A stretch of DNA of 53,480 nt from a virus. Its lineage: Duplodnaviria; Heunggongvirae; Uroviricota; Caudoviricetes. The position numbers were made by a program. Below, piece after piece: positions 1-9,000 of this stretch (the first letter of the stretch is position 1; each line of letters begins with the position of its first letter). The stretch lies in IMG/VR virus record IMGVR_UViG_648028025_000004, one strand, 5' to 3'.

Positions 1-3000
1 TTACTTCTTCGCCTCTGCAACCACTTTACTACCCACGCCGCGGTTATTGTATTCCCACATGCGGTTGTAGTTAGTGTCATTCAGATTGCGCTGTATTTCG
101 TCGTTATCATCTACGCTGCCGGTATTACCCGCAAACGGACGATTAGAGATCACCGCATCGGCCCACGGTTTAGCCGTGTTAAAACCTTCGTTGATGGCGC
201 TATCACGGATCACCACCTGACCGTTGGTATTGGCATCAACATCCAGCGAGCGGCCCAGTTGCGCCACACCATCACCGAAAGCATTGAAACGGCTGTTTAC
301 GGCGAGGAAACCGTAGTAAATGTTGGACAGCGTAGCCGGTGCAAACACATACGCTTCTTGCTGAGTACGTGAGTTCACCACGCGGAATTCGGTGTTATCG
401 AACACCACTGCGCCGCGACCAGAAACGATATCCACATCCCCTTCAATGTAGCTGTTGGTCACCAGCGTACGCGGCTGACGATTCGTTTCCAGACGGTTCT
501 GCACACCGCTGTTGGTGACAAAGAAGGTGTTCTGACGACCGAGAATGTTAACGTTGTTAATCTGTACCTGGTCACCATCAGTACGCAGTGCCACCGCCGG
601 ATGGTTACCTGCATCTACGCTATCGCCCAGCGTGTTTTCGATGGTCAGATTTTGCAGTTGCAGGCCATTGTTTTGTGACCAGAAGACCGCAGAGCAGAGA
701 ACACCGATACTGTCGCTGCGTTTGCTCTGGCAGCTATCGTACATATACCACGCTGGTTTACCTGGCATATATTTGCCGCGCGGGTTGACGTCGTGACGCC
801 AGTCGGCAGGGCTCATGCCACCATCAAGGGAAAGCCCAATCTTCACATCAATCGGTTTTTCACCTGTACCGTACAGAGTAATTCCACCCGGAGCGGCAGG
901 GACATATACCGTTCCCTGATACTCACCAGGCATCACGGCAATATACTGGCGCTTGTTGGTACGCTTGATAATTGCCGCATCTACCGCCGCCTGAATCGTG
1001 GTATGCGTTACACCTTGAGTGCCCGCCGGGCCGACAACAAAGTCAGGTTGCGCAGGCAGGGTAATCGGGGAAGGATTCCACGCTGCTGCACCTGGTGTCA
1101 GGGATGCAAAATAGTGTTGAGCATCGAAATTCTGCGCTTCTTTTGCCGACAGAATCGGGCGAGAAGAGGTACCAGGCGCGGTTTGATCAGAAGGACGTTG
1201 ATCGGGCGGGGTTGAGCTACAGGCGGTCAGCGTCACGCCAAAAGCCAATGCCAGCGCCAGACGGGAAACTGAAAATGTGTTCACAGGTTGCTCCGGGCTA
1301 TGAAATAGAAAAATGAATCCGTTGAAGCCTGCTTTTTTATACTAAGTTGGCATTATAAAAAAGCATTGCTTATCAATTTGTTGCAACGAACAGGTCACTA
1401 TCAGTCAAAATAAAATCATTATTTGATTTCAATTTTGTCCCACTCCCTGCCTCTGTCATCACGATACTGTGATGCCATGGTGTCCGACTTATGCCCGAGA
1501 AGATGTTGAGCAAACTTATCGCTTATCTGCTTCTCATAGAGTCTTGCAGACAAACTGCGCAACTCGTGAAAGGTCGGCGGATCCCCTTCGAAGGAAAGAC
1601 CTGATGCTTTTCGTGCGCGCATAAAATACCTTGATACTGTGCCGGATGAAAGCGGTTCACGATGAGTAGATGCAATTATGGTTTCTCCGCCAAGAATCTC
1701 TTTGCATTTATCAAGTGTTTCCTTCATTGATATCCCGAGAGCATCAACATGCAATGTTGTAGGGATGGCAATTTTTACGCCTGTTTTGCTTTGCTCGACA
1801 TAAAGATATCCATCTACGATATCAGACCACTTCATTTCGCATAAATCACCAACTCGCTGCCCGGTAACAACAGCCAGCTCCATTGCAAGTCTTAGCCAAC
1901 ATGGTGATGATTCTGCTGCTTGATAAATTTTCAGGTATTCGTCAGCCGTAAGTCTTGATCTCCTTACCTCTGATTTTGCTGCGCGAGTGGCAGCGACCGG
2001 GTTTGTTGTTATATGGCCTTCAGCTATTGCCTCTCGGAATGCATCGCTCAGTGTTGATCTGATTAACTTGGCTGACGCCGCCTTGCCCTCGTCTATGTAT
2101 CCACTGAGCATTGCCGCAATTTCTTTTGTGGTGATGTCTTCAAGTGGAGCATCAGGCAGCCCCCTCCTTATTGCTTTAATTTTGCTCATGTAATTTATGA
2201 GAGTCTTCTGCTTGATTCCTCTGCTGGCGAGGATTTTTTCGTAGCGATCAAGCCATGAATGTAACGTAACAGAATTATCACTGTTGATTCTCGCTGTCAG
2301 AGGCTTGTGTTTGTGTCCTGAAAATAACTCAATGTTGGCCTGTATTGCTTCAGTGATTGCTATCCTCCTGTCTCGGCCTAATCCAAACTCTTTACCCGTC
2401 CTTGGGTCCCTGTAGCAGTAATATCCATTGTTTCTTATATAAAGATTAGGGGGTAAATCCCGGCGCTCATGACTTCGCCTTCTTCCCATTTCTGATCCTC
2501 TTCAAAAGGCTACCTGTTACTGGTCGATTTAAGTCAACCTTTACCGCTGATTCGTGGAACAGATACTCTCTTCCATCCTTAACCGGAGGAGGGAATATCC
2601 TGCATTCGCGCACCCATCGACGAACTGTTTCAAGGCTTCTTGGGCGTCGCTGGCGTGCATTCCACTCCTGAAGTGTCAAGTACATCGCAAAGTCTCCGCA
2701 ATTACACGCAAGAAAAGCCGCATTGATGCGGCGATGGTAGGTCTGGATATCATTGAGCCATGAACAGGCCTCATCGAGTGTGAGGCTGTGGTTAGTCCTT
2801 TCGTAACTCGCTGATTCTCCTGTAAGTCTCTGGTGCTTTGTTTCCGTGTATCTTCATTTCAGACTTCAACAGAGCAACGAGGGAATCCCATTCGTTGAGG
2901 ATGCCTTTGAATGCCGGAACGCGCTTTGCAACCTTGTCGAATGAATCTCTGATTTCTGGAATCTTCTCAACAAGTGCAACGCATCGTCGGAAGTCTGCTG

Positions 3001-6000: not shown

Positions 6001-9000
6001 TCGCGTTCTTCTTTCTCTGCAAGCCATATACAATGGCGAAATTCCTTTTCCTCTTTCGTTTCCTGCGGTAGCGACATTATCCGATCGTAGTTTTTTCTGA
6101 ATTTATCCAGCACCTCCGATACGGAATTGCCGGAACAGCGGCGCGCGTCATCCGCACCATACAGAGGCGCTGGCATAATTAAATCCTTATTTTTCTAAAT
6201 CAGAATGGGATGGAATCGTCGTATACAGGAGTGTTCTGCTGGTTACTACTTTGCTGCTGCGGGCCATTTCCTGAAGCTGCAAATCCAATCTTTGCATTCA
6301 GTAATTCAAGAGTGATTGATTGACCATTTTGCCCCTGATAAACATCAACCCTGATGTTTTCTCCGGTAATTTCCACAATGCCACCTTCAACAAGAACACT
6401 ACGGTAGTAATCCGCTTGCGCTCCCGGCTTGGCAAATACAACGGCGCTGTAGTTTGTCCATTCTTTCTTTTTTGTCTGGCGATCGTAATACTGAACGCCA
6501 GCACGGATGTTGAATCCGATATTTTCCCCGGTCTGAAACTCTCTTGCGGGCTTGTTTAGTCTTACAGTAATCGAATGTGCCATTAAGCAGCAGCTCCTTC
6601 TAATTCGTCTCGTCTGATGTTGTAAACGTCCTGCGCTTTGTGCTGCTCCGGTGTGCCTTCGAGCATCTTCCACGCTTTGGCGAACGCCTGTTTAAGCTCT
6701 TCTACGGTGTTTTTCTGCATTGCTGCGTCAGTGAATGCTTTTAGAACCTGTTCAGGTGTAGGTGATGGTTTTGATTGCTTTGCTGCTGCGTTCTGCTGAT
6801 GTTTATGCTCGTCGGTATCTGCATCTTTCGCATCATCAATGCCGAATAAACCATTGAGGCAATACTTGCGTGCATAAGAGCTTGTAGCTCCCGTAACTTG
6901 TGCAGAATCCATTCCTTTCTTGCTTTCTTCCTCTCGTGCAAGAGCGGTTGCCGTATGACTGTTTTCGCCATCGGTAATAGTTGCCGTGGCTTTCACATAA
7001 TACCGATCACCAATCAACACAACTTCATCGCTGATTGATAAAAACAGGCCATTCAGTAACGGCTTAACGCCTTCAAGAATATCTTCGCAGCTTCTGTATT
7101 TATATTTGCCGAATGAGTTGTACTGATTCTTTGGCGCGTTCAGATTCTCCTGAATAGCTGCCAGTCTTGCGTAAAATTCTTTGCTCATATGATTGTTCTC
7201 AGAATGGACACGGCCCAAGGAAATAACGCTGATTTAATACTTCGACTCGGGACAAATTAAGGCATACCCGCATTCCTTCGCGGTCACCATTATGGCGATA
7301 CCAGAGAGCTTTCTGAGGTAGCCTGAGTTTAACGGACACTCCTTCCTGAAATAGAATGGCATCAGAAGGAGCTAATAATGAGCAGAAAAACCCAACGTTA
7401 CTCTAAAGAGTTCAAAGCCGAAGCTGTCAGAACGGTTCTTGAAAATCAACTTTCGATCAGTGAAGGCGCTTCCCGATTATCTCTTCCTGAAGGCACTTTA
7501 GGACAATGGGTTACCGCCGCCAGAAAAGGGCTCGGTACTCCTGGTTCCCGCACGGTGGCTGAACTGGAATCTGAAATTCTGCAACTGCGTAAGGCGTTAA
7601 ATGAAGCTCGCCTTGAGCGAGATATATTAAAAAAAGCAACAGCGTATTTTGCACAGGAGTCGCTGAAAAATACGCGTTAATCGAACAATGGCGACAACAA
7701 TTTCCCATTGAAGCGATGTGTCAGGTATTTGGTGTATCCAGGAGCGGTTATTACAACTGGGTACAGCATGAACCCTCAGACAGAAAACAAAGTGATGAGC
7801 GGCTAAAACTGGAGATTAAGGTGGCACATATCCGCACTCGCGAAACATATGGAACCCGGCGGCTCCAGACGGAGCTGGCAGAGAATGGCATCATCGTTGG
7901 TCGTGACCGACTGGCACGTCTTCGTAAGGAGCTAAGGCTACGCTGTAAGCAGAAACGCAAGTTCAGAGCGACTACGAACTCGAACCACAATCTGCCAGTT
8001 GCGCCAAATCTGCTGAACCAGACGTTCGCTCCTACAGCACCAAATCAGGTCTGGGTGGCGGACCTGACGTATGTTGCCACACAGGAGGGATGGTTGTACC
8101 TCGCTGGCATCAAAGATGTTTATACGTGCGAAATTGTCGGCTACGCCATGGGAGAGCGCATGACAAAAGAGCTGACAGGTAAAGCTCTGTTTATGGCGCT
8201 CAGGAGCCAGCGCCCACCTGCCGGGCTAATCCACCACTCTGATCGAGGTTCACAGTACTGCGCATACGATTACCGGGTCATACAGGAGCAGTTTGGTCTG
8301 AAAACATCAATGTCGCGTAAAGGTAACTGTTACGACAACGCTCCGATGGAAAGCTTCTGGGGAACGCTGAAAAATGAGAGCCTGAGCCACTATCGTTTTA
8401 ATAACCGGGATGAAGCCATCTCAGTAATACGGGAATACATTGAGATTTTCTACAATCGTCAGCGTCGTCACTCTCGTCTGGGGAATATCTCCCCGGCAGC
8501 CTTCAGGGAAAAATATCATCAGATGGCTGCTTAAAAAAAGAACAAATGGTAGTGTCCGCTATTGCCAGTACACCTCATTCTGCGTGTACATGCGCCTCTG
8601 TAACTTGCTCTCCTTCACTGTGGTTGCAAGTGACATGAATATCTCCTTCGTTACCGATTAATTCTTTCATCTGACGAATGAATTCTTCGTCTGACCAGTT
8701 ATCTGTAAAACTCATTTCCTGCGATAACACGGAAGGTTGATAGCTGATTTCATCGCTTTATTTGCTTCAAGCCACATTTTTGAATCACCAATAAATCGGG
8801 CTATTACTGCCTTGTTCTGTGCAGCACGAAGCATCTGGTGATTGATGGCTATTTCATTGCGCATAATAAGACCTCAACTCTTTTCCATCCGTCACGTAAT
8901 TTACGGGTGATTCGTTCAAGTAAAGATTCATTTAATTGGAAGGCACCCATGCGAGCGCCTCCCGCGATTGCGTAAATCATGGGTGGTTCCTTATGTTGGT

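Follow-up and report, generated by a model that had tools for sequence, protein, structure and literature searches.

The genes considered here lie near the left end of a 53,480-nucleotide stretch of DNA (the window, meaning the whole of this stretch) from the virus record IMGVR_UViG_648028025_000004 (Caudoviricetes), which opens with the host gene ybhC, followed by a lambda-type int and by xis. From xis onwards, open reading frames (ORFs) follow one another on the minus strand up to the recombination genes, and the order of the whole array, read leftwards, is erf, a gene for a putative HK97 gp40-like single-strand DNA-binding protein (SSB), abc2, a DUF2737 gene, a phrog_614 gene, an Ea22 homolog, an EaA-like gene, a Lar-family gene, an ASCH-labelled gene, orf55, orf114, xis and int (Table 1). 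The initial annotation had described eight tightly packed ORFs between xis and the recombination module. All eight were recovered on the minus strand, six of them as given in Table 1 and two as first listed at 3981-4697 and 5154-5729; nevertheless, these two starts had been over-extended, and a ninth gene, that of the DUF2737 protein, had been missed. As the RefSeq gene tables already annotate the whole block, with a gene order that agrees, the region is an ordinary and already catalogued accessory-gene block located between xis and the recombination genes.

Table 1. Genes and other features in the left part of the window (aa, amino acids).
Feature	Position	Strand	Remarks
ybhC (host gene)	1-1284	-	window start
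lambda-type int	1419-2489	-	
xis	2467-2685	-	run of minus-strand ORFs follows
orf114, 114 aa	2792-3136	-	adjoins xis; phrog_1229, a large uncharacterised family; predicted all-helical
orf55, 55 aa	3165-3332	-	identical to lambda Orf55 (lambdap35); phrog_676, E 6.6e-40
Terminator-like hairpin	3382-3403	-	9-bp stem and T-rich tail; between the ASCH-like gene and orf55; consensus scan only
ASCH-labelled protein, 94 aa	3405-3689	-	GTG start; phrog_625, E 1.8e-51; name from RefSeq
Lar-family zinc-ribbon protein, 100 aa	3682-3984	-	PF14354, TIGR03655
EaA-like protein, 205 aa	3981-4598	-	phrog_60, E 1e-32; ORF open upstream to 4697
Ead/Ea22-family protein, 185 aa	4600-5157	-	PF13935, E 8.9e-30
phrog_614 coiled-coil-rich protein, 185 aa	5154-5711	-	phrog_614, E 1.4e-80
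DUF2737 gene, 54 aa	5708-5872	-	PF10930, E 2.3e-28; RefSeq WP_001214436
abc2, assigned as P22-type anti-RecBCD protein 2, 97 aa	5883-6176	-	PF11043, E 5.6e-63
Putative HK97 gp40-like SSB, 127 aa	6200-6583	-	phrog_44 (SSB), E 2e-28
erf, single-strand annealing protein	6583-7188	-	PF04404, E 2.4e-44
IS600 (IS3 family)	7316-8578	+	RefSeq annotation of an identical element; 3-bp CTG target duplication
Deletion junction, 3.08 kb lost	10447-10449		comparison with the uninterrupted FWSEC0001

The eight ORFs first listed are real genes and not chance ORFs, because each of them is preceded by a GGAG-type Shine-Dalgarno sequence, each of the encoded proteins recurs in its exact sequence on about 1000 or more contigs in a collection of 15 billion proteins, and the ratios of non-synonymous to synonymous substitution rates (dN/dS) against the HK022 orthologs are low (0.01-0.28, from small difference counts, for orf114, the ASCH-like gene, DUF2737, abc2, ssb and erf). 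The genes are closely packed: proceeding from orf114 to abc2, the successive junctions are gaps of 28 and 72 nucleotides, overlaps of 8 and 4 nucleotides, a 1-nucleotide gap, two overlaps of 4 nucleotides and a 10-nucleotide gap. As for the two corrected starts, the ORF of 238 aa reaching to 4697 most likely begins at Met34 (position 4598), which would yield the EaA-like protein of 205 aa. Three PHROG profiles (phrog_660, 3323 and 5117) begin at this methionine, the sequence AGGAG precedes it, and the start sits 1 nucleotide after the upstream stop codon. Similarly, the ORF of 191 aa most likely starts at 5711, giving the protein of 185 aa that is found in RefSeq. A promoter scan yielded three sigma-70-like sites, that is, fewer than the 11.1 obtained in shuffled sequence, and for this reason no internal promoter is proposed.

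The segment 2400-7400 of the window is 100% identical in DNA sequence, over 98% of its length, to four records of Stx1a-converting phages (LC744181-4), and at least 80% of this 5-kb stretch is present in 113 of the 5426 complete E. coli genomes; the best-matching genomes are at or near 100% identity, and several of them are labelled O26 or O26:H11. Parts of the stretch are shared, at 96-97% identity, with HK022, HK97, HK106, CUS-3 and the mEp phages. In particular, the early-left region of HK022 and HK97 (int-xis-...-abc2-gp40-erf) contains homologs of orf114, orf55, the ASCH-like gene, DUF2737, abc2, ssb and erf in the same order and with 92-99% protein identity, whereas the central genes (those of the Lar-like, EaA-like, Ea22-like and phrog_614 proteins) differ or are only partly related, and the HK022 locus that was compared has no Lar-like gene. 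On the evidence of these alignments, the block shows the mosaicism usual among lambdoid phages, with pieces in common with HK022, HK97 and CUS-3. The resemblance to lambda's exo-xis region (orf55, ea8.5, ea22, orf61, orf63 and orf60a) consists in the shared genomic slot, an identical Orf55 and an Ea22 that is homologous from end to end, but the window has no homologs of ea8.5, orf61, orf63 or orf60a, and it carries Erf and Abc2 instead of Exo, Bet and Gam.

All these observations can be accommodated by reading the region as that half of the early-left (pL/N-dependent) operon which lies farther from the promoter, in an HK022/HK97-like lambdoid prophage that occupies lambda's attachment site, beside ybhC, in a genome of the E. 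coli O26 type, and a probability of about 0.85 is given to this reading as a whole. Early transcription from pL under N antitermination is established lambdoid biology and, after induction or infection, N-modified transcription from pL would express the block in intact relatives.

The placement of all eight ORFs between xis and the recombination module proved right for the early-left accessory genes but not for the eighth of them, which belongs to the module itself. The initial annotation had guessed, from size and position, that this 97-aa protein might be a P22-type Abc2, and the guess is borne out by a match to PF11043 that covers positions 1-97 of 97 with 209.6 bits (cutoff, 25 bits), by a second match to phrog_656 (abc2 anti-RecBCD, E 7.7e-55), and by an alignment with the P22 Abc2 of PDB 8B1T chain A, in which 88 of the 97 residues (91%) are identical (E 2.8e-57). 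By homology, then, the protein is identified as a P22-type Abc2. The P22 protein, whose complex with RecBCD has been solved by cryo-electron microscopy (PDB 8B1T/8B1U), has the same length of 97 aa, the same full-length Pfam match and the same P68, and it differs by nine substitutions, mostly in the disordered C-terminal third. Within the stretch spanning residues 6-52, which was modelled on RecC, only positions 11 and 32 are substituted, and P68, proposed to occupy the active site of the host prolyl isomerase PpiB, is kept; these residue roles, as well as the mechanism of Abc2, derive from published work (PMC9836394).

The Erf module of P22 also resembles that of the window in that abc2 lies close to erf, no phage exonuclease is present and the genome is poor in Chi sites. 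Indeed, no exo or recE homolog was found between int and kil, and a single Chi site (GCTGGTGG) occurs in the 53 kb, at 28217-28224, when shuffled sequence gives about two. E. coli chromosomal DNA has far more Chi sites, and a single one is consistent with the Chi-poor phages that encode an anti-RecBCD protein. The module departs from that of P22 in that the slot of abc1 is occupied by the putative HK97 gp40-like SSB, which is the HK75/HK97 arrangement. The combination of Erf, SSB and Abc2 has been described as the "HK75 type" recombination module, and HK97 gp40 was classed as SSB-1b by its predicted fold (PMC12315714). Abc2 is therefore part of this module (Erf, gp40-like SSB and Abc2) and does not lie upstream of it. 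Erf is 99.5% identical to the Erf of HK022, and the SSB-like protein, named "Bacteriophage HK97 gp40" by one source, had no SSB match in Pfam and gave matches at chance level only in a search of PDB sequences. Based on published work on the homologs, RecBCD would process the ends of the phage DNA without responding to Chi and would deliver single-stranded DNA to Erf and to the SSB of the phage, not to RecA. As a side observation, the SSB-like protein ends in DDSIPF. The C-terminal tip of E. coli SSB resembles this sequence and recruits partner proteins, and the phage protein may compete for, or make use of, the host SSB-interacting proteins.

The proposal that the gene at 3682-3984 encodes a Lar-like protein also held. 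Its product scores above the cutoffs of both PF14354 (35.7 versus 28.6 bits, E 1e-8) and TIGR03655 (58.7 versus 39.6 bits, E 5.3e-16, residues 3-54), it is 34% identical to the Lar protein (RalR) of the Rac prophage, and the cysteines C6, C9, C31 and C33, read from the sequence, would form a four-cysteine zinc ribbon. The CxxC pair is kept in seven of the eight other aligned sequences (the exception being P0047, with Q at position 7) and the CxC pair at positions 31-33 in six of seven close relatives. Judging from these matches, the protein carries a Lar zinc-ribbon domain, which comprises residues 2-54. With 100 aa it is longer than the small single-domain Lar proteins (about 55-65 aa; 64 aa in Rac Lar), because residues 54-100 form a 47-aa tail that lies outside PF14354 and TIGR03655. 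The long form, its tail included, is conserved with 66-96% identity across full-length close relatives from E. coli and Enterobacter, and the product of gene 20 of the Shigella phage SfV, also 100 aa long, falls into one 90%-identity cluster with the window protein. RefSeq splits the continuous ORF into an incomplete Lar and a 47-aa hypothetical protein, a division that looks like an annotation artifact. The single-sequence AlphaFold model of the protein was unusable (predicted local distance difference test score of 36.8), and the search of PDB sequences gave only chance-level matches.

Rac Lar shares with the window protein the CxxC...CxC/CxxC ribbon of about 55 aa, a TIGR03655 score above the cutoff and the location of its gene between xis and the recombination genes, although the identity is only 34%, the 47-aa tail has no counterpart in it, and Rac possesses the small RNA RalA, which was not detected in window positions 1-12000. 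Rac Lar, of which lambda Ral is the functional analog, has been reported to alleviate type I restriction (King and Murray 1995, as cited in PMC4041452). Like both of them, the Lar-like protein would alleviate type I (EcoKI-family) restriction and enhance modification; extrapolating at 34% identity, it probably does alleviate type I restriction.

The statement that the remaining ORFs lack any recognised function was too strong, since the block encodes, in addition to the Lar-family protein, an Ea22 homolog, lambda Orf55, a DUF2737 protein and one to which RefSeq gives the ASCH label. The Ea22-like protein matches PF13935 with 104.5 bits (cutoff, 27 bits), and its residues 1-185 align with lambda Ea22 at 36% identity (E 5e-24, tblastn). 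RefSeq flags this gene as missing its C-terminus, which is doubtful because the alignment runs from end to end. Lambda Ea22 has been reported to favor lysogeny (PMC7093339, PMC10834534), as has the Ea22 of Stx phages; the Ea22-like protein would bias the decision in the same direction, and by analogy it probably favors lysogeny. The adjacent phrog_614 protein matches positions 2-197 of the 378 positions of phrog_14548 and the Ea22-like protein, encoded by the next gene, positions 200-278, indicating that both genes are fused in some phages; in addition, the N-terminus of the phrog_614 protein resembles that of the HK022 Ea22-like protein (67% identity over 65-70 aa to HK022 p35). The match of the DUF2737 protein to PF10930 covers positions 1-52 of 53, and the protein is 92.6% identical to its HK022 copy. 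The product of orf55 is identical in 55 out of 55 residues to lambda Orf55 (L003:1622-1786). The EaA-like protein is named "Eaa / Phage EaA protein" by the sources, and it has no Pfam or PDB match.

The case of the ASCH-labelled protein is less clear. Its match to PF04266 reached 14.3 bits against a cutoff of 21.2 (E 0.068) and was restricted to the N-terminal residues 6-28, and similarly weak matches were found for 14 of its 26 relatives (best E 0.013). The family profile retrieved no ASCH entry among PDB sequences, and alignment with E. coli YqfB using hhalign gave a probability of 0.1%. Membership in the ASCH family is unproven, the label coming from RefSeq. The gene shows a dN/dS of 0.06 against HK022.

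The orf114 protein, encoded next to xis, has 1877 relatives at E<=1e-3 (HMMER, among 1.84 billion cluster representatives), and eight residues (G18, S20, P43, D45, D48, R51, C52 and W83) are invariant in 48 diverse members. Its fold, consisting of seven helices, is confidently predicted, and this predicted fold has no detectable relative among solved structures. The family has no annotation in Pfam, NCBIfam, PHROGs or PADLOC, and longer proteins in which the orf114 domain occurs have no Pfam match. The genes of the relatives are located within early or replication gene clusters, or beside an integrase, and the genomic contexts of five distant ones revealed no constant partner gene. A ligand or partner site could be located at the conserved helix N-caps; that orf114 is a new factor for host takeover or counter-defense, binding a small ligand or a host protein at these N-caps, is conceivable but rather unlikely. 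A link to PF04447 (dATP/dGTP pyrophosphohydrolase) was considered and rejected: the sequences that suggested it (P0147, P0182 and P0193) are not homologs but chimeras produced by recombination, with a short AGIS stretch common to both partners as the point of fusion. As a separate observation, in six database sequences (these three together with P0149, P0163 and P0166) a part of orf114 is joined to parts of the PF04447, Erf, Ea22 or Kil genes. Since so many chimeras connect it to early-left genes, the xis-proximal gene appears to be a frequent joint of recombination or deletion in these prophages.

The copy of the prophage in the window shows decay. Compared with the otherwise identical O26:H11 prophage of FWSEC0001, it lacks 3.08 kb, and a fusion at 10448 connects the 5' part of sieB with the 3' part of cII; window positions 10067-10448 correspond to L005 16668-17049, and 10448-11144 to L005 20131-20828. 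The lost segment, which was not found elsewhere in the window, held N, cI, cro, pL and pR together with the 3' part of sieB and the 5' end of cII, and its removal leaves a prophage without repressor and early promoters. LC744181, which has the same accessory block, keeps an immunity region of 4.7 kb where the window has about 340 bp. Among 5426 complete E. coli genomes, 10 had the junction between sieB and cII, no phage record contained it, and this confinement to ten genomes indicates that the decay is recent. Moreover, the insertion element IS600 lies between erf and a small ORF adjoining kil, on the kil/cIII side, with its transposase gene antisense to early-left transcription. Because the deletion removed pL and N, and IS600 is situated upstream of erf, the operon is probably silent in this copy: the block is intact in sequence, but most likely it is not expressed in the normal way. 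The term operon, as applied to the window itself, did not hold, in view of the loss of the pL promoter and the N gene.

Several other features of the surrounding region were recorded. In FWSEC0001, IS600 sits after a TolA-like gene, and LC744181-4 have no IS600 between erf and the kil side. The TolA-like gene is an ORF of 286 aa, rich in Glu, Ala, Lys and Arg (9005-9865, minus strand), which lies between cIII and the deleted immunity region and is called "cell envelope biogenesis protein TolA" in RefSeq; it is intact in the window and a pseudogene in RM8426 and FWSEC0001, and it has no Pfam match. A deletion of 67 nucleotides relative to FWSEC0001, at approximately 11129-11144, divides the replication gene O into two ORFs that overlap (10742-11299 and 11239-11613), and O is probably a pseudogene. 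In the nin region, an insertion of 1.3 kb relative to FWSEC0001 (14006-15317) contains an ORF resembling an IS3-family transposase (14049-14939, minus strand). Finally, peptide motifs of the Stx1 A or B subunits were absent from all frames of the whole window, despite the 100% identity with Stx1a-converting phages from int to erf; this copy may represent a relative without stx, or the toxin genes may have been lost from it.

Considering this damage, it might be argued that the block is debris, made up of decaying pseudogenes in a defective prophage, and no longer serves any function. Besides the deletion of N, cI, cro and pL, the insertion of IS600 upstream and the frameshift in O, this notion draws on the RefSeq pipeline (PGAP), in which the Lar-like, EaA-like and Ea22-like genes are given the flag "incomplete". 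Both the doubtful expression in this strain without pL and N and the PGAP flags do weigh against the early-left operon reading, as do the sub-threshold Pfam score of the ASCH assignment, the low identity to Rac Lar and the extra tail, which make restriction alleviation an extrapolation, and the description of Rac Lar as a DNase toxin as well. Nevertheless, every ORF is open, the segment is 100% identical to that of complete Stx1a phage genomes that keep their immunity region, the Lar (100 aa), Ea22 (185 aa) and EaA (205 aa) forms each recur on about 1000 contigs, the Ea22-like protein is colinear with lambda Ea22 throughout, and the ten-genome limit of the junction places the decay in recent times. 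The incomplete flags look like artifacts of mosaic genes being scored against longer references, and it is unlikely that the block is debris. The toxin activity deserves separate consideration, since Rac Lar and RalR are one and the same protein, which is reported to act as a DNase toxin and to have the small RNA RalA as its antitoxin (PMC4041452), and at 34% identity to RalR the window protein might be the toxin (a non-specific DNase) of a RalR/RalA-type type I toxin-antitoxin pair and not a restriction alleviator. This idea is weakened by the absence of RalA, as an Rfam scan of window positions 1-12000 detected neither RalA nor any other Rfam family even at E<=1. In addition, lar is followed downstream by the ASCH-like gene and not by rcbA, which is overlapped by the RalA gene in Rac, and the Lar-like gene is embedded in a translationally coupled operon, overlapping its neighbors by 4 and 8 nucleotides. 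A toxin role is considered very improbable.

A more serious contender concerns the remaining genes of the block, for which the initial annotation had pointed to counter-defense. This suggestion gained no supporting evidence: a PADLOC scan of ten proteins returned no defense system and only coiled-coil-level matches of the Ea22-like protein (E 0.0035 and 0.0088), the PDB sequence searches with the ASCH-like, orf114, EaA-like, Ea22-like and phrog_614 proteins gave chance-level matches only, no Pfam or solved-structure match pointed to such a role, and neither the full text of the literature, searched for the PHROG identifiers, nor the supplements of Silas et al., searched for the peptides of the block, contained any mention. 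It may be instead that orf114, orf55, the ASCH-like, EaA-like and phrog_614 genes and DUF2737 influence, by way of host transcription or physiology, the choice between lysis and lysogeny and the induction of the prophage, in the manner of the exo-xis genes of lambda and the Stx phages. The block lies where the exo-xis genes are located and holds lambda Orf55 itself together with an Ea22 homolog; the exo-xis genes alter lysogenization and induction, and Ea22 favors lysogeny (PMC3824215, PMC7093339, PMC10789677); and lambda Orf55 has been modelled as a T7 Gp2-like protein that binds RNA polymerase (PMC8614690). Nonetheless, none of these genes is homologous to the studied orf60a, orf61, orf63 or orf73, and the Orf55 model is speculative in the words of its own authors, so that such tuning is a tentative possibility that falls short of being probable. 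These genes could serve either counter-defense or lysis-lysogeny tuning, and no evidence was found that decides between them. Under the early-left operon reading, the remaining five proteins would be non-essential accessory proteins.

For the biology of the group, the analysis matters little beyond correct annotation. Given that the operon lost its promoter and its regulator in this copy, phenotypes should be sought in intact relatives. The one item with some novelty is the uncharacterised orf114 family, which represents a reasonable target for a counter-defense or host-takeover screen. The O26 prophage lineage, including the Stx1a-converting phages, carries a predicted RecBCD-hijacking module made of Erf, SSB and Abc2 together with a candidate anti-restriction gene of the Lar family, and the Abc2 module and the Lar-like gene could affect the spread of these phages between E. 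coli strains.

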